In this document: piece by piece, positions 1 to 42,440 of the stretch
Numbering within the stretch: the first letter of the stretch is position 1
Layout of the letters: the number at the start of each line of letters is the position of its first letter
Origin: Minisyncoccota bacterium
GTDB taxonomy: Bacteria; Patescibacteriota; Minisyncoccia; Phycocordibacterales; UBA9973
Reading direction: 5' to 3'
DNA: 64,000 bases
Assembly: GCA_025453495.1 (NCBI GenBank)
Contig: JALOQM010000004.1
Span: 28,990 to 92,989 of the forward strand
Position numbers and translations under genes: made by a program
Notes under the pieces: generated by a model
Told to the model about the DNA's origin: nothing
The model's input: the letters and a program-made list of their open reading frames with translations, nothing else
The model's database searches: none

Positions 1-424
1 TGACTTCTTGGCATCTTCATCCAAAAAATCTTTTCAGTGCGAATTAGCGACATGCTATCATCCCGTGTTGCAAGTATAATCAGAGAATTATCAGTGCTTT
101 GTATGGATACAGGGGTATTTTTTGTATAACACCAGCACGAATTCTTTTCTTTATCATGGAGTTGTTATATAACATCCCCTACTTGCTTTATTTCTAATAA
201 AAAGGAGACAGTGATAGTCAGACTTGTCTGATCTGTGGCAAAAAAGAATGATTGTGGTATGCAGACTCCAAACCTCCGAGTCCTCGCGAGGAAAAATTAA
301 TTTATGCGTACCCACCGCAGAAAGCCTACTTCGGTGGGTTTTCTCTTTTGAGCGAATAATGAATATGCAAATTAAATATGTCTATAGTAACTTCACTAGA
401 AGCTAATATGCTATTCTTATTTAA

Positions 425-7325: not shown

Positions 7326-8456
7326 TTACTCCGGAGGGGAATCAAAACTCGGAGTTGTGCTCGGTGCAGTAGTGGGAGCAGGTGCAACCGTTTCACGTCG
7401 CGGTGGCGGAGGCGGATCAAACGTCTCCGTTTTGGGTGCCGATGGCTGAGTCTTCGGTATCTGTGTTGCGGGCTGTGGTGTACTCCAACTTGTAGTTCGC
7501 TGCGGTTGCTTCTTTTTCGGCTCGGTGTTTACTACCCCATCAACTGGAGTAGGAGCTGTTTTAAACGAGACAATCACACAATAGCCTTCCGCTTGATAGC
7601 GACGGAAATTGCGTTTTGCTTGCCGTTCCGAAATGGAGTCATTTTTGAACTTCAGGATGTATGCGTCAAGCATAAATTCCTGAAGTTCTGTAATGTAGGC
7701 GGTAAAGCGGTACCCTTGCGGTTTGGTCGTTGCCTCAATAAATGCGGCATCCATCTTTAACGGCATCACATGTCTTCCAATAGGAAGATTCGTTTGAAGA
7801 TCCTTGCCGATCGGGAGAAAAATATCCACCAGTTCGCTCGGTCCAGATTCCGTACCTTTGCCTACATCAAGATCAGTGTAGGTCACAGCCGCATCGGTTA
7901 AACCAATAAAGTAACTGTAAAACGGTATACCAACCGCCAGATAACTTTCTTCGCTTGCATTGAAGCGATAGTTATAGGGCGGAAGCGATACCGAATCATG
8001 TGGAACGAGGCGGAAATTTTTGGCGTGAGGTACACCTTTACTGGTAAGGCCTGCAAGCACTCGCTCACCATACTTATCGCCATTACAGCGAATAGTACTT
8101 CCTGTATTGAGCGTAGCCTCAATGATTAAGTCCATGTTATCGGGCTTCTCACGAAGCACGATCTGAAGATCATTATTCTGATCCTCAGTCGAAAACATCG
8201 ACACCCATATACCTTTTTTTTGCGAATCATTCGTAATCATAAATGACGCATAACAGCCTGTTGGACCAAGGCTCCAGATGGCGTCTGCTGTGACATACGG
8301 AATGTAACCTATAATATACGGGTCACCACTATTACTACCATTTTGCTCGTATACATATGCGTCTTTCGGCACTATAGAGTTATCAGCTCTATAGTGTGCC
8401 TGCAAGGTCACGCTGAAAAGCGCGAGTAGGCAGGCTGAAAAAAAGATTTTTTTCAT
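7326..8456 (-). CDS. Secreted hypothetical protein with Pro/Thr-rich C-terminal tail
   Basis: Start chosen at MKKIFFSACLLALFSVTLQA (signal peptide; ATG at 8454-8456) rather than the upstream in-frame extension. C-terminal about 70 aa is P/T/S-rich low complexity. Confidence 0.55.
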   Translation of the reverse strand: MKKIFFSACLLALFSVTLQAHYRADNSIVPKDAYVYEQNGSNSGDPYIIGYIPYVTADAIWSLGPTGCYASFMITNDSQKKGIWVSMFSTEDQNNDLQIVLREKPDNMDLIIEATLNTGSTIRCNGDKYGERVLAGLTSKGVPHAKNFRLVPHDSVSLPPYNYRFNASEESYLAVGIPFYSYFIGLTDAAVTYTDLDVGKGTESGPSELVDIFLPIGKDLQTNLPIGRHVMPLKMDAAFIEATTKPQGYRFTAYITELQEFMLDAYILKFKNDSISERQAKRNFRRYQAEGYCVIVSFKTAPTPVDGVVNTEPKKKQPQRTTSWSTPQPATQIPKTQPSAPKTETFDPPPPPRRETVAPAPTTAPSTTPSFDSPPE

Positions 8457-8627
8457 GCTTTTTTCGGTTTTTGCAGTTGTTGTTTTTATTGGTTTATTAA
8501 AGTTACATCCTACGTCCTCCGATCTCGGGAAAATTCCGAGATCGGGTAGGGATATACGCATTATACTTATTTAAGTAAATATGTCAATACCTTCAAATAA
8601 GGTAATAAAATGGCATTTTTTCAATAT

Positions 8628-14129: not shown

Positions 14130-14762
14130 CTATCTTTTACCCTGTTTCCACTTCTTGTGATTTGTTGAACGATTGACGAACCAAGCATCATCAGCATTAA
14201 ACCACCATGCGTCAGGGTGCATGGTCATAATTAGCGAACCAAGTTTTTTTGCCGCCGGAGTTTTCAAACGTTTATTTGCAATAACAATCCACTCCCTCGC
14301 TTTTGAGTTCCCCTTCACCTCCTCTTCGCGAAGTGTCGACATCCATTCAAGCACATCGGCATCTTTGACGATCTTTGCTTCAATAGACTGACGCTCTTGT
14401 TCTTCATTAAAAAGAGAAAGTATTTCCCCACCAAACGGGACAGAATCTGCAATATCACGGACCGCATCAGCTTCAGCTAAACGCCCATAGCGTTGGTGCA
14501 CATAGTTATGATCTGAAGTACGTCCTTCTCCTATGTCATGAAAAAGTGCCATCAAGACTGTCTTTCGCACATCAGCCTTTGGATCAAGATTAGCAAGCGC
14601 ATACGCAATCATCGCTGTATGAAATAAGTGCTCCGCGACCGATTGTGCACCACTACCAAGAAACCAAAGCCCAGAGCGCGGAGTTTTACTATGAATTGCT
14701 GTCTCATAGACAAATGAGGCGAGTTTACTGTAGACATCGGTCGTTCTTTTCTTTGCAGGCAT
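14130..14762 (-). CDS. HD-domain phosphohydrolase (YfbR-like 5'-deoxynucleotidase family)
   Basis: 210 aa. AEHLFHTAMIAYAL...LFHDIGEGRTSD gives the H...HD...D metal-binding pattern of the HD superfamily. Confidence 0.8.
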   Translation of the reverse strand: MPAKKRTTDVYSKLASFVYETAIHSKTPRSGLWFLGSGAQSVAEHLFHTAMIAYALANLDPKADVRKTVLMALFHDIGEGRTSDHNYVHQRYGRLAEADAVRDIADSVPFGGEILSLFNEEQERQSIEAKIVKDADVLEWMSTLREEEVKGNSKAREWIVIANKRLKTPAAKKLGSLIMTMHPDAWWFNADDAWFVNRSTNHKKWKQGKR

Positions 14763-19164: not shown

Positions 19165-19590
19165 GTTTTGAGCCAGATAGTTGCTCTTTGATGTATATCA
19201 AAGAGAGGAAAGTCCGAACACATAACGATTCAATTCGTATAGGTAATGGGTAATTCCCATACGGAGCAATCCGCGAGGTGCGAGCAGAGACGCTTGCAAG
19301 CGAAAGTGCGCAAGCGTCCCGACTTCGGTCGGGACGAGTTCTCAAGGTAACTTGAGAGGTGAAACGGCTAAATCCTTACCCGTGTGCAAGGCCGTGTTCC
19401 CCACTACTTTAAACAGTTATATGAATACTCTATGTAGTAATGAAATAAAAATTATCGCATACGCATACTCACATAAGTTTTTAAAGTAGTGGGGAAAGTG
19501 CCGCTTGAGGCCGACGGCAACGTCGGTCCCAGATAAATGACTATCGTCTGGGTAACCAGATACAGAATTCGGCTTATAGGCTCAAAACTA
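19165..19590 (+). ncRNA. rnpB: RNase P RNA (bacterial type A-like)
   Basis: Universally conserved GGAAAGTCCGAACAC near the 5' end and ACAGAATTCGGCTTATAG near the 3' end. P1 pairing gttttgagcc (19165-19174) with ggctcaaaac (19579-19588). Contains an AT-rich extended hairpin insertion (ccccactacttta...taaagtagtgggg, about 19377-19500). Terminator hairpin at 19596-19626. Confidence 0.85.
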
Positions 19591-19595
19591 ACATG

Positions 19596-19626
19596 AAAAA
19601 GTGCTCCATAAAGAGCACTTTTTCTC
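19596..19626 (+). terminator. Rho-independent terminator after rnpB
   Basis: aaaaagtgctccataaagagcactttttctcttt seen directly. Confidence 0.6.
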
Positions 19627-19651: not shown

Positions 19652-19680
19652 AGTGAGATTATTGACATATTACTTAGTAT
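19652..19680 (+). promoter_or_regulatory. Perfect consensus sigma-70 promoter (TTGACA, 17 nt spacer, TATAAT) upstream of the large surface-protein gene
   Basis: ttgacatattacttagtatattatataat seen directly, about 60 nt upstream of the ATG at 19740. Confidence 0.6.
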
Positions 19681-19739
19681 ATTATATAATAGCTACATTA
19701 CCTTCAAACCAGGTAATTTACTAAATTTATCTATTATTT

Positions 19740-22124
19740 ATGAGTACTATCATCAAAACATTCATGGCATCGACCTTCATCGTAGGTATGGTGCTCATGT
19801 CAGCTACACCGGCATTTGCCTATCGAGCAACCCGACGCAGTAGTTCAACAAGTACAAGTACGTCGAGCTCATCTGCTTCGAGTTCTTCCTCTTCAGTAAT
19901 CTCAACAAACTTGTCTTCTTCGGCAAGTTCAGTAACTGTAAGACCAACTTCTTCAGCGAACACAAATACAACGCTTACCTCAAACATGAGTTCGAGTTCA
20001 TTTACTGTACTCCCTGCAACAAATATCACTGCCACAGGAGTAGATCTTAGTGTGTCATATACAATTGGTCATGCGGACGCAAACGCTGGCGGCGTTGACG
20101 TCAAATTCGTCTACGACACCACTCCAAGTATCAATTACGTTTCATCACCAGCAACTGCCTTCACTCTACTTGCTTCGGGTTCTGGGGGTTCTGGAACACA
20201 CACAATGAACGTTGCGGGTCTAACTCCTAACACCACATACTATTACCGTATTCTTGGTAACGGTGCGTCAGTAAGTTATGTCGGCAATACTGTCGTTTCA
20301 TTCACTACGTTACCAGCAAACAACAGCACTGGCGCATCGACGTTTACGATCAACCCAGCAACAGCTGTCACTCAGGCGACAGCGCAGCTTAACCTAACAT
20401 ATGCTATAGCTCCGGCAGATGCATTAAATGGCGGCGTTGACGTCAAATTCGTCTACGACACCACTCCAAGTATCAATTACGTTTCATCACCAGCAACTGC
20501 CTTCACTCTACTTGCTTCGGGTTCTGGTACGACACTAGCAAACTCTGTGCAGGCACCAATTGTTTCCACGGTAACAGCAGGAAACATTGCAAATACGCAA
20601 GCACAACTAAACGGTACCTATAATGCAAATGGCACAGCAAGTACTATCTGGTTTGAATACGGTCCGACTGTCGCACTTGGCCAGTCGACTAGCATACAAA
20701 ATGTCGCTGCTAACACATCAGGCAACTTCAACAACACCATCACTGGTCTTGCTGCAAACAGTACCTACTATTTCCGTGCAGTCGGACAAAACAGCTTTGG
20801 TACAGCATATGGCACAACACTTTCGTTCACTACGACAAATACAAATTCATCTTCTTCATCAGGCGGTGGAAGTGGTGGAAGCGCAGTTGCTGATGTCTCA
20901 ACATTGAATGCAACAGCAATAACTGATAACAAAGTGACACTTGAGGGAACATTCTATTCAAATGATCTTGCAACAACAACCTGGTTTGAATTCTCTACTA
21001 ACGAGAGAGATGTTATCAACAATAATGCACGCGCTGTTGGTCGGCAAAATCAGCAAACTGTAGCGTACGGAGACTTCGACTACACTGTCGACGATCTTAC
21101 TCCGGGAACAACATATTACTTCCGTGCAGTTGCAGAAAACACACGTGGTATCTCTTACGGTACAATCAAGTCATTTACTACAGCAGGAACTTCTCTTGAG
21201 AATAGTTCTGACTTCAGTGCACTTACCTCTCTTGCAACCGGTATCAGTTTCACAAGCGCAACCTTAAACGGTATCATAAAGAATGATAGAAATGAAGCAA
21301 TACAGGGCTACTTCGAATACGGTACAAGTGCAAATTCACTTGTAAATTCAACAAATATGAAGTCACTCGGCTCAAATGAAACACTTGCAATGAGTGATGC
21401 AGTCTTTGGTCTTGCACAAGATACCTTCTACTACTTCCGAGCAGTCGCGGAAAGCTCAAATGGTATCTCTCGTGGTGACATCAGAATATTCAAAACACTC
21501 GGTGGTGTCGTCTCGACTGAGACAGGTCCAGTCACACCTGTGACAACTGTTGTGGCTTCAAATTCTGCTTTTGTAACAGTGTCTATTGAAAGCCAATCAG
21601 AAGAAGTGGCATCAGGTGATGCTATAAACTACACTGTTCGTTACAAGAACACTAGTGGTTTTGACCTTGCAAGCACAGCAATCGAAGTCACTTTCCCAAA
21701 CGAAGTAGAATTTAACAACACTTCAGATGGTCAATTTGATGCAGTGCGCAATACACTCGTCGTCAATGTCGGTACACTTCCCGCAAATGTTGAAGGTAAA
21801 ATAACGATAGATGCGACAGTGCTCTCTGGTGCAAATGTCAAAGACTTCCTCCTTACCAATGTCCTTATGAAGTACGTCAATCCTCTAACAAAAGGACAAG
21901 AAGAAGCAATTGCGTATGTCATCAACACGGTAACAAACAATAACAGAAATGCACTCGGCGCAGCATCACTCTTTGGAAACGGAAGCTTTCTCCCAAACAC
22001 TGTTATCGGGTGGCTCTTGCTCGTGCTCGTCTTGAGTGGCCTCGCCTTCCTTGGCAGATATATCTATGTCGGTCAAAGAAGAAAGGCATACATAGAAACC
22101 ACACCTGACAACCTCCCTCACTAA
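19740..22124 (+). CDS. Large cell-surface protein: signal peptide, Ser-rich region, fibronectin-type-III-like repeats, DUF11-like domain, C-terminal transmembrane anchor
   Basis: 794 aa. Signal peptide, S/T low-complexity stretch, recurring ...TTYYFRAV..N... motifs (FN3-like strand G) about every 110-115 aa, DUF11-like segment (AINYTVRYKNTSGFDL...), C-terminal hydrophobic anchor plus RRK. Contains a 98-nt perfect direct repeat (20088-20185 = 20430-20527). Terminator at 22142-22168. Confidence 0.6.
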   Translation: MSTIIKTFMASTFIVGMVLMSATPAFAYRATRRSSSTSTSTSSSSASSSSSSVISTNLSSSASSVTVRPTSSANTNTTLTSNMSSSSFTVLPATNITATGVDLSVSYTIGHADANAGGVDVKFVYDTTPSINYVSSPATAFTLLASGSGGSGTHTMNVAGLTPNTTYYYRILGNGASVSYVGNTVVSFTTLPANNSTGASTFTINPATAVTQATAQLNLTYAIAPADALNGGVDVKFVYDTTPSINYVSSPATAFTLLASGSGTTLANSVQAPIVSTVTAGNIANTQAQLNGTYNANGTASTIWFEYGPTVALGQSTSIQNVAANTSGNFNNTITGLAANSTYYFRAVGQNSFGTAYGTTLSFTTTNTNSSSSSGGGSGGSAVADVSTLNATAITDNKVTLEGTFYSNDLATTTWFEFSTNERDVINNNARAVGRQNQQTVAYGDFDYTVDDLTPGTTYYFRAVAENTRGISYGTIKSFTTAGTSLENSSDFSALTSLATGISFTSATLNGIIKNDRNEAIQGYFEYGTSANSLVNSTNMKSLGSNETLAMSDAVFGLAQDTFYYFRAVAESSNGISRGDIRIFKTLGGVVSTETGPVTPVTTVVASNSAFVTVSIESQSEEVASGDAINYTVRYKNTSGFDLASTAIEVTFPNEVEFNNTSDGQFDAVRNTLVVNVGTLPANVEGKITIDATVLSGANVKDFLLTNVLMKYVNPLTKGQEEAIAYVINTVTNNNRNALGAASLFGNGSFLPNTVIGWLLLVLVLSGLAFLGRYIYVGQRRKAYIETTPDNLPH

Positions 22125-22141
22125 TCACTATTTGCTTTACT

Positions 22142-22168
22142 AAAACGCACCCAGTAGGGTGCGTTTTA
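22142..22168 (+). terminator. Rho-independent terminator
   Basis: aaaacgcacccagtagggtgcgtttt seen directly. Confidence 0.6.
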
Positions 22169-22566
22169 GTATTCTTTAACCTAACTAACTCCTTTCGTCG
22201 TTTTTTCTAGGATTGTCTTATTATGTACTGAGTTTTTCTTTTCGCCTCCCGCTTTTTCTTGCATGCGGAGTCTGCCTAATAACTATCCTGCATGTTCAGC
22301 TGTAAAGCGAAATATACTCTTTTTGTAATTAATTACTTGTTACAGTTAGAGGCAGACAAGTCCTCGCAGCGAAGAAAGCGGAAATGCGTGAGTAATTCAT
22401 GCAAAAGCCAGAACCCTACCACTATGCACACTGCGCAAGCGAGTAGCGAGCCGTAGTAATTTTTCAGCAGAAAAATACGCGTGTGCATAGTGGTAGGGTT
22501 AAAACAAGAACACGGTATATTCAATAACTACTACATAGAAAACGATCATGAGAGTCACACGACTAT

Positions 22567-22614: not shown

Positions 22615-24960
22615 TTAGATTTCACACACACCAGAAACACACGCTAACTCTTTTTTGACTTCTGTCTCATCTGCACGCTCATAAGTAACAATCTTTGAGA
22701 AGTCGATATTTTTTACTCCTTTCAAAAGCTCTTCGTAACGCTTTGCATCAATCGGCTCATATGGCGCAAGTTGGTAAATATGGTTTGAACGAGGAAGGAA
22801 TGAGAGACCGCCGACAATATCCCAGTTCTCATATACCCAATTAGCAACCATGATCCACTCGTCATCACCAACAGAGATTGTTACTGATGGATTGTGTTCG
22901 GTGAAATTCGTCTTCACCACTTTCCAGTGTTCAAGTTGTTCAAGGGCGGTGATATCGTCCTTGAAGATAGCACCCTTTGGAGCTTTGACTGGAAATTCAA
23001 GTACATAGGTCGTTGCCGTATCCATTGCCTGCCCTACTTCTGGATGATATGGGATACCTTGATCTTTGAGCATTTTGAATAGTGCGTCAGTTGCTGAAAT
23101 ACGAATGCGACGAATGTAGTATTGAGCATGACGTGGATGCATGCCTGATGCTGAGTCTACAGTCTGCGAGACAGTGCCTGATGGCTTCACACAGGTGATA
23201 CAAGTTGATGCATTAATACCAAAGCGCTTTGCGTAGAGTTTGTTGACGCGAATTGCTTCTTCCTTGAGCTTTCGAAGTATTTTTGGATCACGAGCTGCTG
23301 TCGAATCCCACTGACCAGTGATAGAGACACCGAGCAATCGTTCTTCATCGCAATTCTTTTTCCATGCTTTTGAGAGGTATGGGAAATTCGTAAGTGTCGA
23401 CTGATAGGTACCAAGAATTGTGGCGATACGAACCTTTTTCATAAGTGTCTTTTCTGTATCATCGGCACGAGCAACAACTTCAGAAAGATTACAAAATTGC
23501 TTTGACTGAAGGAGGATCTCACCGCACGGATTAGTACCAATCCAACCAATACGATCATCGAGAAGATTCACGCGACGCTCAGGAAGCGTTGCCCCGAGAT
23601 TGCTACGATTAAAGATACCGCGCTCACCCGAGCCAGACTTCATAAGTGCAATCCACTCATCCATAAATTCAGTAGTTGAAGGTTTTGTATTGTATACAGC
23701 GGAGTTATTGGCAAGCATGCGCTGCCCTTCAGAATTCCAAAACTGACCTGTCTTTGCGTCACGCATTGCTTCATCATCTAGATCAGAAAGTGAGATAAGT
23801 GCACTTCTGCGGACACCACCAGCAACGACACATTCGCCAATTTTGCAGATAATGTCATGCACATCAATATTTGAGAGACGCTTACCTTGTTTGCGCAATA
23901 TTCTATCGCGTGCGAATGCAAGCACTTGGCGAAGTGGCTCAGGACCTGAACTCTTGCCTCCCATTGTCTTCAAACGTGCACCTGCTGGGCGAAGCTTAGA
24001 GAAATCAAATTCAACATCATTGCCTGCAAACCAAGTTTCCAAACCGTCAATAAGCGCGTCCGTCCACCCTTCTTTACTATCACCAACGACGTGAACTTTT
24101 GCTTTCTTACCTTTTTGTTTAGCGATCTGCGGTAGTGCCTGGACATTCTGACTCTCAACAGAAAAGCCAACCCCCGTACCACACATAGAGACATACATAA
24201 TTTCTGCGATGTCGCGAAGCGATGCAGGTGCAGTGTAAGAGCAGTTATATGCACAGACATTGGTGCGCTCAGCCGCAGGACCTGCAAACTGTACAAGTCG
24301 CATCGATGGCATAGCCTCCTGACGAAGTATTGCCTCACGTATTTCTTTATACTCAGCGGAAGTCAACTTGTTACCGAGATTCTTCTTCATGAAGTCTACA
24401 TATCTGTCGATCGTTTCAATCCACGTTTCGCGACGACCTTCGGATTCAATCCATTTTGAGTATGTACGGTAGTAGACGAGTTCTGCAAGCGGATTTCTAA
24501 AGTATTTCTTGCTTTCTGCTACCAACTTTTTGACATGCGGTGGTACTTCCCCGAATTCCTCACGCGCTTTGGTGCGTTCTTGACGATAGAGGATATAGCT
24601 CTTGGCTGTCTCTGGTAAACCCTCTTTAATAAGGGCTTTTTCTACCAAATCTTGGATAATCTCAACTGTCGGGACGAAATTGTAGTCCTGGATAGTCTTC
24701 TTAATCTCAAGTAGATCTTGGTGTGCTCGTTCAGCAACATGCTCTGGAGGCATGGCACTCTCCCCAACTACTTTCATTGCTTTGCCAATCGCTCGAGAAA
24801 TACGGTCGATATCAAATGGCACAAGACGACCGTCACGCTTTCTTACTTGGTTGATACCAGTGAAAGAATTCTTTGCCGATGTCTGTGATCGGGGTCCTGG
24901 TTTCACTGAAGACCGGGACTTTGGTGTGGGTTTTTTGCGCATAGTGAGACTATTGTACAT
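22615..24960 (-). CDS. nrdJ: Ribonucleotide reductase, class II (adenosylcobalamin-dependent, NrdJ-like) with N-terminal ATP-cone
   Basis: 781 aa. ATP-cone-like N-terminus (VRKRDGRLVPFDIDRISRAI), active-site block NPCGEI, length and motif order typical of monomeric/dimeric class II RNR. Confidence 0.85.
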   Translation of the reverse strand: MYNSLTMRKKPTPKSRSSVKPGPRSQTSAKNSFTGINQVRKRDGRLVPFDIDRISRAIGKAMKVVGESAMPPEHVAERAHQDLLEIKKTIQDYNFVPTVEIIQDLVEKALIKEGLPETAKSYILYRQERTKAREEFGEVPPHVKKLVAESKKYFRNPLAELVYYRTYSKWIESEGRRETWIETIDRYVDFMKKNLGNKLTSAEYKEIREAILRQEAMPSMRLVQFAGPAAERTNVCAYNCSYTAPASLRDIAEIMYVSMCGTGVGFSVESQNVQALPQIAKQKGKKAKVHVVGDSKEGWTDALIDGLETWFAGNDVEFDFSKLRPAGARLKTMGGKSSGPEPLRQVLAFARDRILRKQGKRLSNIDVHDIICKIGECVVAGGVRRSALISLSDLDDEAMRDAKTGQFWNSEGQRMLANNSAVYNTKPSTTEFMDEWIALMKSGSGERGIFNRSNLGATLPERRVNLLDDRIGWIGTNPCGEILLQSKQFCNLSEVVARADDTEKTLMKKVRIATILGTYQSTLTNFPYLSKAWKKNCDEERLLGVSITGQWDSTAARDPKILRKLKEEAIRVNKLYAKRFGINASTCITCVKPSGTVSQTVDSASGMHPRHAQYYIRRIRISATDALFKMLKDQGIPYHPEVGQAMDTATTYVLEFPVKAPKGAIFKDDITALEQLEHWKVVKTNFTEHNPSVTISVGDDEWIMVANWVYENWDIVGGLSFLPRSNHIYQLAPYEPIDAKRYEELLKGVKNIDFSKIVTYERADETEVKKELACVSGVCEI

Positions 24961-32308: not shown

Positions 32309-32827
32309 TTAACAGGAATAGTAAGCAAAGAAGTCACCTGCAAGAGACTGATCAATAGGTATTTCCCCTGAATCAGTCACTTTTCCTTTCTCCACCATAA
32401 GATATGGTACAACAAGACAACTGGTTGTGCTTGTTTTGAGAAAAAAGGTTCCAGCAAAGATGATCCTTCCAGACCAATTACTTGGTACTGTTTCGGGATT
32501 ATCTTTGTAAAAATCTCTGACATTAACATTTGCCACACATGATTCCTCCTTACATTTAAAAAAAACAAGCACTTCATCAAGTGTTATCGCTAATATTTCA
32601 TCCCTAGATAACAGCATGATTTTTTTAGGACTACACCGAAGGCGCCTTGTTTTTACATGCAATGTAGGCGCATTAATACAGCCATCGGGAATTTTAGGTG
32701 GTAAATGGAGATCAATCAATTTGACTTCATTTATTGGAACTGCAACAACAGTCATAAAAAAGAACTTATTTAAAGGTGAAAAGTTTGGTTTCAGCCTTGA
32801 ATATGAAAAACAATTCATATTCGCCAC
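32309..32827 (-). CDS. Hypothetical protein
   Basis: 172 aa ORF (GTG start in the ORF track; internal ATGs possible). Terminator-like hairpin at about 32255-32295. Confidence 0.35.
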   Translation of the reverse strand: MANMNCFSYSRLKPNFSPLNKFFFMTVVAVPINEVKLIDLHLPPKIPDGCINAPTLHVKTRRLRCSPKKIMLLSRDEILAITLDEVLVFFKCKEESCVANVNVRDFYKDNPETVPSNWSGRIIFAGTFFLKTSTTSCLVVPYLMVEKGKVTDSGEIPIDQSLAGDFFAYYSC

Positions 32828-40673: not shown

Positions 40674-42440
40674 ATGCTACACTATACCCCTATGGAACAG
40701 GAAAAACTGAACAATCAGAGACACACACTCGCGCACCTGCTCGCTCAGGCAGTGATTGAACATTATCCGAGCGCAAAGCTCACCCTCGGCCCAGCGGTCG
40801 ACAACGGTTTCTATTACGATATCGATTTCGGCGGAGAAAAAGTAACCGACGCCGATTTGCAGAAACTGGAAGCAACGATGCGCAAAAATCTTCCAAAGTG
40901 GACTGCATTCACCCACCAAGAAGTAACGAGAGACGAAGCGCTCACACAGTTTGACGGCAATGAATACAAAACTGAACTCATAAACGAAATCGCTGATAGG
41001 GGCGAAACCATTATCCTTTATACCTGTGGCGGTTTCACCGATCTATGTCGCGGCGGCCACAGCGACCACCCCGTAGACGAGATTGATGCTGAATCGTTCA
41101 AACTCGACCGCGTCGCCGGCGCCTACTGGCGCGGTGATGAAAAGAACAAGATGCTCACCCGTATCTACGGTCTCGCATTCGCGACAAAAGTAGATCTTGA
41201 TGCATTCATCTTCCAGCAAGAAGAAGCCAAGAAGCGTGATCACCGCAAGCTCGGCAAAGAGCTTGGTCTTTTCATTTTCTCAGAACTCGTCGGCCCCGGC
41301 CTTCCTCTCTGGACACCGAAAGGCACGCTCGTCCGTGAACTTTTGAACGATTATGTCTGGGAACTCCGCAAACCACGAGGCTACCAGAAAGTGACAATTC
41401 CACACATCACAAAGAAAGAACTTTACGAGACATCCGGCCACTGGGCAAAATACGCCGAAGACCTCTTCAAGATCAAGACGCGCGAAGATCACCTCTTTGC
41501 CATGAAGCCAATGAACTGCCCACACCACACGCAGATCTTCGATGCTGAACAGCGTAGCTACCGTGACATGCCGCAGCGCTACGCCGAGACAACCATGGTG
41601 TACCGTGACGAGCAGTCCGGCGAGCTCTCGGGTCTTTCGCGTGTGCTTTCTATTACTCAAGACGATGCACATGTCTTCTGCCGTGAAAACCAAATAGAAG
41701 ACGAAACAATGGCAATCTGGGATATCATCGAAACTTTTTACGGCACGTTTGGCTTCAAGCTCCAGGTGCGCTTTTCGCGCCATGATCCATCGACACCGGA
41801 GAAATATCTCGGTGGCGAAGAAGTCTGGGCAAAGGCAGAAGGAGCACTCAAGAATCTCATGGAAAAGAAAGGCATCACTTGGATTGACGGCATCGGCGAG
41901 GCGGCATTTTATGGACCAAAGATAGACTTCATCGCTCGTGACTCAATCGGCCGCGTGCTCCAGGTTGCGACAATTCAGCTTGACTTCAACCAACCAAAAA
42001 GCTTCGGTCTTTTCTGTATCAATGAACAGGGAGAAAAAGAGCAGGTCGTGATGATCCACGCGGCAATCATGGGATCGATTGAGCGCTTCATGTCAACACT
42101 CATCGAGCACTACGCTGGTGCATTTCCACTTTGGCTCTCTCCTGTGCAGGTAGCAATACTTCCAATTTCCGACAAGCATAGTGAATACGCGCGAGATGTA
42201 CTCGGGAAACTCAAGGCATCGGGCATTCGCGCCGAGATCGATGATTCACGTGAATCGCTTGGCAAAAAAATCCGCGCCGCAAAAACACAAAAACTACCTT
42301 ATCTCATCGTCATCGGTGACAAGGAAATGGAATCACAGACAGTCACACTCGAAGGACGCAACGACGAAAAGCACGAAGGTATTACATTTGATGCCACTCT
42401 CATATTACTTAGAGAAAAAATAGACAACAAGAACAACTAA
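40674..42440 (+). CDS. thrS: Threonine--tRNA ligase (short form lacking the N-terminal TGS domain)
   Basis: 588 aa. Begins in the editing domain (RHTLAHLL...GPAVDNGFYYDIDF), class II catalytic core and C-terminal anticodon-binding domain. Confidence 0.9.
   Translation: MLHYTPMEQEKLNNQRHTLAHLLAQAVIEHYPSAKLTLGPAVDNGFYYDIDFGGEKVTDADLQKLEATMRKNLPKWTAFTHQEVTRDEALTQFDGNEYKTELINEIADRGETIILYTCGGFTDLCRGGHSDHPVDEIDAESFKLDRVAGAYWRGDEKNKMLTRIYGLAFATKVDLDAFIFQQEEAKKRDHRKLGKELGLFIFSELVGPGLPLWTPKGTLVRELLNDYVWELRKPRGYQKVTIPHITKKELYETSGHWAKYAEDLFKIKTREDHLFAMKPMNCPHHTQIFDAEQRSYRDMPQRYAETTMVYRDEQSGELSGLSRVLSITQDDAHVFCRENQIEDETMAIWDIIETFYGTFGFKLQVRFSRHDPSTPEKYLGGEEVWAKAEGALKNLMEKKGITWIDGIGEAAFYGPKIDFIARDSIGRVLQVATIQLDFNQPKSFGLFCINEQGEKEQVVMIHAAIMGSIERFMSTLIEHYAGAFPLWLSPVQVAILPISDKHSEYARDVLGKLKASGIRAEIDDSRESLGKKIRAAKTQKLPYLIVIGDKEMESQTVTLEGRNDEKHEGITFDATLILLREKIDNKNN

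Follow-up and report, generated by a model that had tools for sequence, protein, structure and literature searches.

What kind of surface protein is encoded by a gene in which two tandem domains share a perfectly identical stretch of DNA, and how did that identity arise? We addressed this for a 64,000-nucleotide (nt) stretch of contig JALOQM010000004.1 from an uncultured, ultra-small Minisyncoccota bacterium (assembly GCA_025453495.1), referred to here as the window, in which positions 19740..22124 of the plus strand encode a Ser-rich protein of 794 amino acids (aa) with fibronectin type III (FN3)-like domains, numbered D1 to D5. Only a handful of surface proteins have so far been characterised in Patescibacteria, bacteria that are believed to spend their lives attached to other cells. 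The comparisons below indicate that the duplication is a recent gene-conversion tract between D1 and D2, in a protein that is probably a membrane-anchored component of the cell surface.

An identical tract shared by two old tandem domains

The window protein is identical to MCU0660475.1 of NCBI (MUD00_02575, 'Candidatus Pacebacteria bacterium'), carried on a 95-kb contig of a metagenome-assembled genome (MAG). We compared its locus with that of the same population in a Joint Genome Institute (JGI) assembly (L001) and with orthologous loci from three other species (L002, L003 and L004), whose proteins are 49-54% identical to it over the matched region. The JGI contigs Ga0392395_0000068 and _0000535 (metagenome 3300037462) show 100.000% identity to window positions 14052-62448 with the exception of two indels, and a partial Logan assembly (SRR12684587) is 100% identical to the window wherever the two overlap. 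Indels aside, these three assemblies of one population agree at every aligned base over 48 kb.

Within the gene, positions 20087..20185 (in D1, coding for GGVDVKFVYDTTPSINYVSSPATAFTLLASGSG) and 20429..20527 (in D2), both on the plus strand, form an exact identical run of 99 nt with a period of 342 nt and no third occurrence in the window. The preliminary description of this DNA had reported the same perfect identity with a run of 98 nt, which is one nucleotide too short. Given a background identity of about 54-70%, 99 consecutive matches would arise by chance with a probability of 2e-26 to 5e-16. The boundaries are sharp: nucleotide identity between D1 and D2 rises from 54% before the tract to 100% inside it and falls back to 54% beyond. 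The two copies agree at each of their 33 third codon positions, while the equivalent segment of the orthologues reaches 30-50%.

A perfect tract of this kind is found in none of L002, L003 and L004, where D1 and D2 share 61-71% nucleotide identity across the whole domain. All three orthologues carry both domains, with D2 complete, so the two constitute an old tandem pair. Because selection at the protein level cannot yield full identity at synonymous sites, we infer gene conversion or another non-reciprocal recombination. On this sequence evidence the 99-nt duplication is a recent gene-conversion tract between old tandem domains, as the preliminary description had proposed. The tract, coding for DTTPSINY..SPATA, is closer to orthologous D1 than to D2, and D1 was for that reason probably the donor, although we draw this only tentatively.

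Collapse during assembly, raised beforehand as an observation that would undo the repeat, was not borne out. The two copies have distinct flanks in the two full assemblies, and the Logan assembly breaks 30 nt inside copy 2, which would be expected for a true two-copy repeat in a graph with k=31 (the value of k suggested by the 30-nt overlap). We also considered a diversity-generating retroelement target and rejected it: the copies are 100% identical, with no adenine-specific differences, and both are coding. No reverse-transcriptase-like open reading frame (ORF) was found in the window, where two YxDD matches were incidental.

Two in-frame indels at the ends of the tract

The two indels are the only differences between the window and the JGI assembly over 48 kb, and each coincides with the 3' end of a tract copy. 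At 20186..20194 (plus strand), the window carries a 9-nt tandem duplication, GGGTTCTGG, which adds Gly-Ser-Gly and is absent from the JGI assembly. At 20527..20528, it lacks 108 nt that JGI and Logan both have, an in-frame deletion with no microhomology at its junction. The junctions specific to the window read TTCTGG/GGGTTCTGG/AACAC for the duplication and TTCTGG/TACGACAC for the deletion.

The deleted 108 nt encode 36 aa, TMSRTVTGLTPNTTYYYRILGNGYQYSYVGSPIQSF, corresponding to the E-F-G half of D2. The window protein contains a half domain because this deletion removed strands E-G: alignment with the JGI allele and the orthologues leaves D2 as a remnant (aa 199-264; 20334..20531, plus strand) with strands A-C' only. 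Likewise, AlphaFold2 places only the first strands A, B, C and C' in this region (aa 199-266), at a predicted local distance difference test score (pLDDT) of 71-82. Such a half domain would not be able to fold as FN3.

Both oddities of the window allele, and possibly the perfection of the repeat as well, could be assembly artefacts at a repeat of about 99-103 nt, a question independent of the readings of protein function weighed below. Both differences from JGI fall precisely at the 3' ends of the repeat copies, where a de Bruijn graph branches, and the deletion allele occurs in a single assembly (the NCBI MAG), D2 being complete in JGI, Logan and all orthologues. Against this, both indels are in frame (about 1/9 by chance), the extra 9 nt form a clean tandem duplication of the sort that replication slippage typically leaves, and the repeat copies are flanked differently in two full assemblies while the third breaks there as it would at a true repeat. 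The junction k-mers, moreover, are absent from JGI-type sequence, and graph assemblers would not be expected to invent k-mers. An artefact is possible but on balance doubtful. Since neither indel shifts the reading frame, the junction k-mers are not derivable from the other allele and the tandem duplication is clean, we lean towards the window allele being a real minority variant.

The locus had been put forward as one of rapid variation. That two in-frame indels are the sole differences from JGI over 48 kb agrees with this; the comparison is a single one, however, and open to the artefact just described. Scanning metagenome contigs with the 3' end of the repeat as an exact pattern gave 0 matches for further alleles, and a protein-based scan of metagenome contigs yielded no further relatives. 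A scan of genome contigs contained neither the source MAG nor a close strain, the best match being 40% identical. As expected for an exposed, recombination-prone part of a surface protein, the distal D1/D2 region would be the site of conversion, slippage and deletion. Indels at a 99-nt intragenic repeat mean that repeats in surface proteins either vary within populations or mislead assemblers.

Architecture of the encoded protein

The coding sequence (19740..22124, plus strand, stop codon included) begins at an ATG that is confirmed by conservation of the signal peptide in orthologues. The signal peptide (aa 1-27; 19740..19820) combines a hydrophobic core with an AxA site, MSTIIKTFMASTFIVGMVLMSATPAFA/YR, with predicted cleavage at AFA/YR; it is seen in hydropathy and as an AlphaFold2 helix at residues 3-19 of low to moderate pLDDT, and its motif (S/T)PA(F/L)A is conserved in 4 species. 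A Ser/Thr-rich tract follows (aa 28-87; 19821..20000; 65% Ser plus Thr), within a stretch modelled as disordered (aa 19-82, pLDDT 30-35). The orthologues have comparable tracts of differing length.

The AlphaFold2 model, built from an alignment of 22 homologues (mean pLDDT 74.9), contains four complete tandem FN3-like beta-sandwich units plus the half-unit D2. D1 (aa 87-190; 19998..20309) gives Pur_ac_phosph_N and PhoD_N matches and is modelled as a beta-sandwich at pLDDT 81-92. D3 (aa 272-366; 20553..20837), of the WFEYG...TYYFRAV type, D4 (aa 384-481; 20889..21182), with fn3 PF00041 at aa 440-472, and D5 (aa 492-586; 21213..21497), recognised by its motif, are all modelled at pLDDT 80-92. 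The strongest Pfam scores were 45.4 bits for Pur_ac_phosph_N PF16656 (cut-off 30) and 31.4 bits for fn3 PF00041 (cut-off 25). The motif T(Y/F)Y(Y/F)R occurs exactly four times, at aa 167, 343, 459 and 564. At least four repeats with a TYYFR-type ending had been noted previously; tract copy 2, however, lies in the half domain (aa 199-264), which lacks the TYYYR half.

A disordered linker (aa 590-608, pLDDT <50) leads to a beta-sandwich of the DUF11/CLIPPER type without isopeptide residues (aa 612-731; 21573..21932; pLDDT 78-92; PF01345 at threshold). Beyond it are a conserved juxtamembrane motif, GAASLFGNGSFLPNTVIGW (aa 740-758; 21957..22013), a transmembrane helix (aa 755-777 by hydropathy, 22002..22070; modelled as a helix at 755-787 with moderate to high pLDDT) and a basic, putatively cytoplasmic tail, GQRRK..., ending in PDNLPH (22071..22121). 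All of these lie on the plus strand. The protein has 0 Cys and 23 N-x-S/T sequons, and its distal end consists of the disordered Ser/Thr tract followed by D1. Pfam, hydropathy and AlphaFold2 together bear out the surface architecture proposed earlier: signal peptide, Ser/Thr tract, FN3-like repeats, DUF11-like domain and C-terminal anchor.

A Foldseek search with the whole model returned tandem FN3 arrays (LAR FN3 1-4, fibronectin) and macroglobulin-domain arrays, matches that are generic and of low TM-score because the inter-domain angles are arbitrary. A whole-protein sequence search against the PDB gave marginal FN3 matches only.

Public gene calls cut the N-terminus in four of five versions, with loss of the signal peptide and Ser-rich tract: the NCBI version begins at Met83, the JGI version at a GTG inside the gene and two more at Met codons inside it. 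The affected regions are 19740-20050 in the window, 5689-6000 in L001, 4791-5000 in L003 and 1011-1353 in L004, and the full ORFs are intact at all loci. JGI also annotated a spurious 71-aa antisense ORF over the Ser codons (window 19820-20035). With the signal peptide and Ser-rich region dropped by gene callers, automatic prediction of localisation will go wrong in this family.

A C-terminal module shared across the family

A word-based search identified 425 homologues at E <= 0.001 among 8000 candidates scored; those with names are mostly proteins of Patescibacteria MAGs with 3-12 FN3-like units. The last 205 aa alone matched 1247 cluster representatives, 604 of them at E <= 1e-10, and in most of the matches listed the module is present as a single copy at the extreme C-terminus. 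It consists of the DUF11-like sandwich, the motif GAAS(I/L)FG-x(2-3)-(F/L)(L/F/W)PxT(L/V)xGW, the transmembrane helix, G(R/K) and a tail of 5-90 aa. The motif was found in 146 of the 269 proteins retrieved; in the alignment of the module, P752 and W758 are invariant and T754 nearly so. Despite very different tail lengths, (D/N)LP lies within the last 8 residues in 25 of these 146 carriers; in the window protein it forms part of PDNLPH (aa 789-794), and it recurs in the orthologues P0003 and P0004. This terminal motif may act in cytoplasmic docking or targeting. No NCBIfam family matched the whole protein or its C-terminal 62 aa, and no NCBIfam or Pfam sorting signal was matched even at E 10.

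DUF11 has been renamed CLIPPER, a CnaA-like isopeptide domain represented by structure 9IFR, whose triad comprises a Lys in the first strand, an Asn in the last strand and a catalytic Asp/Glu; some DUF11 domains lack the isopeptide bond (PMC12617251). A single-sequence search with the module returned nothing useful, and 9IFR was found only with a family profile (E 0.0023). The structural model of the module (pLDDT 87) matched 9IFR with a Foldseek E of 4.4e-5 and a TM-score of 0.74 normalised to the target, and the C-terminal domain also matches pilin domains. Stored Pfam annotations assign PF01345 to P0003-P0005 without a weak or faint flag. In alignments with 9IFR and with the family, the triad is not formed: aa 606-635 contain no Lys, Val650 occupies the acid position and Asn707 is the only possible match. 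By this comparison, the window domain is of the isopeptide-less kind.

A conserved promoter and palindrome

Upstream of the gene lies a perfect sigma-70-type promoter (19662..19690, plus strand; 12/12 matches), with TTGACA at 19662-19667, a 17-nt spacer and TATAAT at 19685-19690. The preliminary description had the elements and spacing right and placed them at 19652-19680, off by 10. Perfect 12/12 promoters with 16-18 nt spacing occur twice in the window, against 0.05 expected in a simulation keeping dinucleotide content. In L002, L003 and L004, all 12 positions are kept, always 49 nt before the ATG and always after the terminator of an RNase P RNA gene, which in the window is a hairpin at 19595..19624 (plus strand; 12-13 bp stem, then a T run) conserved in the orthologue alignment and insulating the promoter. 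Since the consensus and the 49-nt distance are conserved at three orthologous loci, which is good comparative evidence, the promoter is likely to be functional, as previously suggested. Very high expression of the gene would be a reasonable expectation. Downstream of the gene is a strong intrinsic terminator with a 15-bp stem (22138..22171, plus strand).

Directly after the -10 element, alignment of 4 species reveals a near-invariant block, CATTACCTTCAAACCAGGTAAT, containing the inverted repeat ATTACCT-N7-AGGTAAT (19697..19717, plus strand) at the predicted transcript start, where it could serve as an operator or as a 5' mRNA hairpin. Another copy, AATACCTTCAAATAAGGTAAT, which differs at one position, lies at 8586-8606 (0.10 expected). 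It adjoins the -35 element of the window's one further perfect promoter, TTGACA-16-TATAAT (8587 to 8560, minus strand), which is followed by ORF 7326-8456 (minus strand). At its likely start, MKKIFFSACLLALFSVTLQA, this ORF encodes a signal peptide; its product has a C-terminus rich in Pro and Thr and matches no Pfam family. Because the copies sit differently, at +1 to +21 in the surface gene and upstream of -35 in the second gene, the palindrome is more likely a DNA-level operator than an mRNA-stabilising hairpin in the 5' untranslated region (UTR). The latter is further disfavoured by the weak RNA fold (-4.6 kcal/mol, z -0.5). A regulator for secreted proteins may be common to both genes. A long inverted repeat, CCCGATCTCGG...CCGAGATCGG, is also present in the second gene's leader (8519-8550) and may be a 5' UTR hairpin.

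The surface gene has no Shine-Dalgarno site, and a motif of that kind precedes only 1 of 42 window ORFs of at least 150 aa. In several window ORFs, among them 14130-14762 and 32309-32827 (both minus strand), a box resembling TATAAT lies some 8 nt ahead of the start codon, which suggests leaderless mRNAs.

Weighing the readings of the surface protein

Taken together, the sequence and the models suggest, with moderate confidence, a type I membrane-anchored, rod-like protein on the surface of Candidatus Pacebacteria, fibrillar adhesin-like or a coat protein, with contact to a host cell or another surface as its most likely role. Transcription would start from the conserved sigma-70 consensus promoter, with the palindrome at the predicted start, and translation would proceed without a Shine-Dalgarno site. 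The protein would be exported by Sec through its N-terminal signal peptide, cleaved after AFA27 and retained in the membrane by the C-terminal helix, leaving the basic tail (GQRRK...PDNLPH) in the cytoplasm. From the membrane outwards, the ectodomain would comprise the CLIPPER/DUF11-like sandwich without its cross-link, D5, D4, D3, the D2/D1 pair and, at the tip, the disordered Ser/Thr tail, possibly O-glycosylated. Judged by the usual length of FN3 domains, this would form a rod or stalk of about 20 nm. With its conserved promoter, synteny and widespread C-terminal module, the gene plausibly encodes an abundant surface component.

Several points weigh against this picture. No adhesive or ligand-binding tip domain was found in Pfam, NCBIfam or PDB sequence searches. 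The DUF11 assignment is borderline, at 24.6-25.3 bits for PF01345 (aa 614-699) against a cut-off of 24.6, and the cleavage site and membrane topology are rule-based predictions. A consensus promoter need not be the strongest one in vivo, and the palindrome could point to repression of the gene under some conditions. At the repeat, the deletion allele may be an artefact of its one assembly, and if near-identical paralogous k-mers were merged during assembly, the two tract copies could be slightly less alike than the 100% given here.

Would a major envelope coat explain the locus better than a dedicated adhesin? Here, the protein would be a very abundant S-layer-like glycoprotein forming the outermost layer, anchored by its C-terminal helix. 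The perfect promoter is kept across species at only about 50% protein identity, and there are only two such promoters in 64 kb; the gene also has a strong terminator, its product a Ser/Thr-rich region and no detected adhesive tip, and the family is widespread in Patescibacteria. Ser/Thr-rich regions are often O-glycosylated in surface-layer proteins. However, no match to SLH or another known S-layer family emerged from Pfam and NCBIfam searches, the Ser/Thr tract is membrane-distal, and a beads-on-a-string arrangement of FN3 units is typical of fibrillar stalks rather than lattices, which makes a coat of this kind unlikely. A bolder version combines such a major S-layer-like envelope protein, co-regulated with ORF 7326-8456 via the shared ATTACCT-N7-AGGTAAT operator, with the proposal that the isopeptide-less CLIPPER-like C-terminal module marks an undescribed anchoring or sorting system widespread in Patescibacteria; we regard this combination as quite improbable.

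The FLPNT motif, helix and basic cluster could alternatively be a signal for a sortase or other sorting enzyme that removes the helix and attaches the protein covalently to the cell wall. In favour of this, the layout is tripartite (motif, transmembrane helix and basic residues, RRK), and (F/L)(L/F/W)PxT is conserved in the 146 module carriers, P752 and W758 being invariant in the module alignment. Yet the window reads FLPNTV, and position 5 in the family is V, L, I or F, whereas LPXTG requires a Gly that no family member has there. The region matches none of the sorting-signal models of NCBIfam or Pfam, no credible TLxTC signature occurs among the ORFs of the 64-kb window, and scans of all these ORFs for sortases and LPXTG gave spurious matches only. 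The tails, moreover, are long and variable, and the (D/N)LP ending in 25 of the 146 suggests that the tail is probably kept and functional. We consider covalent sorting very unlikely. A secreted phosphatase or phosphodiesterase is suggested by the PhoD_N and Pur_ac_phosph_N matches and by the JGI naming of several homologues as 'phosphodiesterase/alkaline phosphatase D-like protein', but these models describe the FN3-like N-terminal domains of those enzymes. With no metallophosphatase or PhoD catalytic domain in the 794 aa and beta-sandwiches in all structured regions, this function was rejected as almost certainly wrong. We retain the membrane-anchored, rod-like adhesin-like or coat protein as the favoured reading.

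Gene neighbourhood

The gene follows a bacterial class A RNase P RNA (19165..19592, plus strand; Rfam RF00010, 148.8 bits), which is also found upstream of the orthologues in L002, L003 and L004. Further upstream lies a minus-strand gene that Pfam annotation, taken over from the JGI locus identical to this one, assigns to the Sua5/YrdC family. Beyond the downstream terminator is a gene for a class II ribonucleotide reductase on the minus strand. The order RNase P RNA, surface gene, ribonucleotide reductase is kept in L002 and L003, and the L004 contig ends before the reductase.

The type of reductase differs despite this synteny: in the window it is a single gene for a class II enzyme of the adenosylcobalamin type (22615-24960, minus strand), whereas L002 (4786-8581) and L003 (7483-11334) encode the large and small subunits of a class I enzyme. 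At window positions 41925-41953, where the NCBI MAG contig is continuous, the JGI assembly is split between two contigs with a 29-nt overlap. L002 also carries a DUF805b RNA motif (116-152, minus strand; Rfam 36.3 bits, gathering score 35.6), which has no relation to the surface gene.

Comparison with known systems

The protein resembles fibrillar adhesins (PMC9210967, PMC12617251) in its signal peptide, its stalk of tandem FN3 and CLIPPER-like domains, its surface anchor and its repeat-driven variation. It differs in having no recognisable adhesive domain at the tip, a single membrane-adjacent CLIPPER-like domain and a plain transmembrane helix in place of an LPXTG or outer-membrane anchor, and its function is deduced from sequence. 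On these features it would largely qualify as a surface protein of the fibrillar-adhesin type, minus the adhesive domain and the CLIPPER cross-link. The C-terminal domain is likewise related to CLIPPER 9IFR by its match at the Pfam threshold, its profile match and its similar fold, whereas the Lys-Asn isopeptide and catalytic Asp are not conserved and strand 1 has no Lys. With the FN3-like N-terminal domains of PhoD and purple acid phosphatases (PF16655, PF16656) and with fn3 (PF00041), the units share a predicted seven-strand sandwich and a Tyr-rich F strand (TTYYFR); in contrast to those enzymes, they form a membrane-anchored tandem array with no catalytic domain after it.

Large surface proteins with FN3 and DUF11 domains have been proposed as host-attachment factors in Vampirococcus lugosii (PMC8080830) and Absconditicoccaceae (PMC13059738). 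These belong to the same phylum-level group as the window protein and share its domain types, presumed surface location and presumed role. The proteins of those predatory Absconditabacteria are, however, giant (>1400 aa), whereas the Paceibacteria protein is 794-827 aa long, with a conserved promoter and C-terminal module; in both cases, the role is a prediction.

Compared with gene conversion described for repeats of surface proteins, the window gene has a single short tract (about 99-103 nt) and two known alleles, but the sharp tract of perfect identity between diverged tandem domains and the in-frame indels at repeats are the same. Intragenic gene conversion is well known and common among repeat-containing bacterial surface proteins. 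The locus is an ordinary example of concerted evolution in such a protein and leaves current understanding unchanged, its mildly new points being the conserved arrangement of promoter and palindrome and the previously undescribed C-terminal module.

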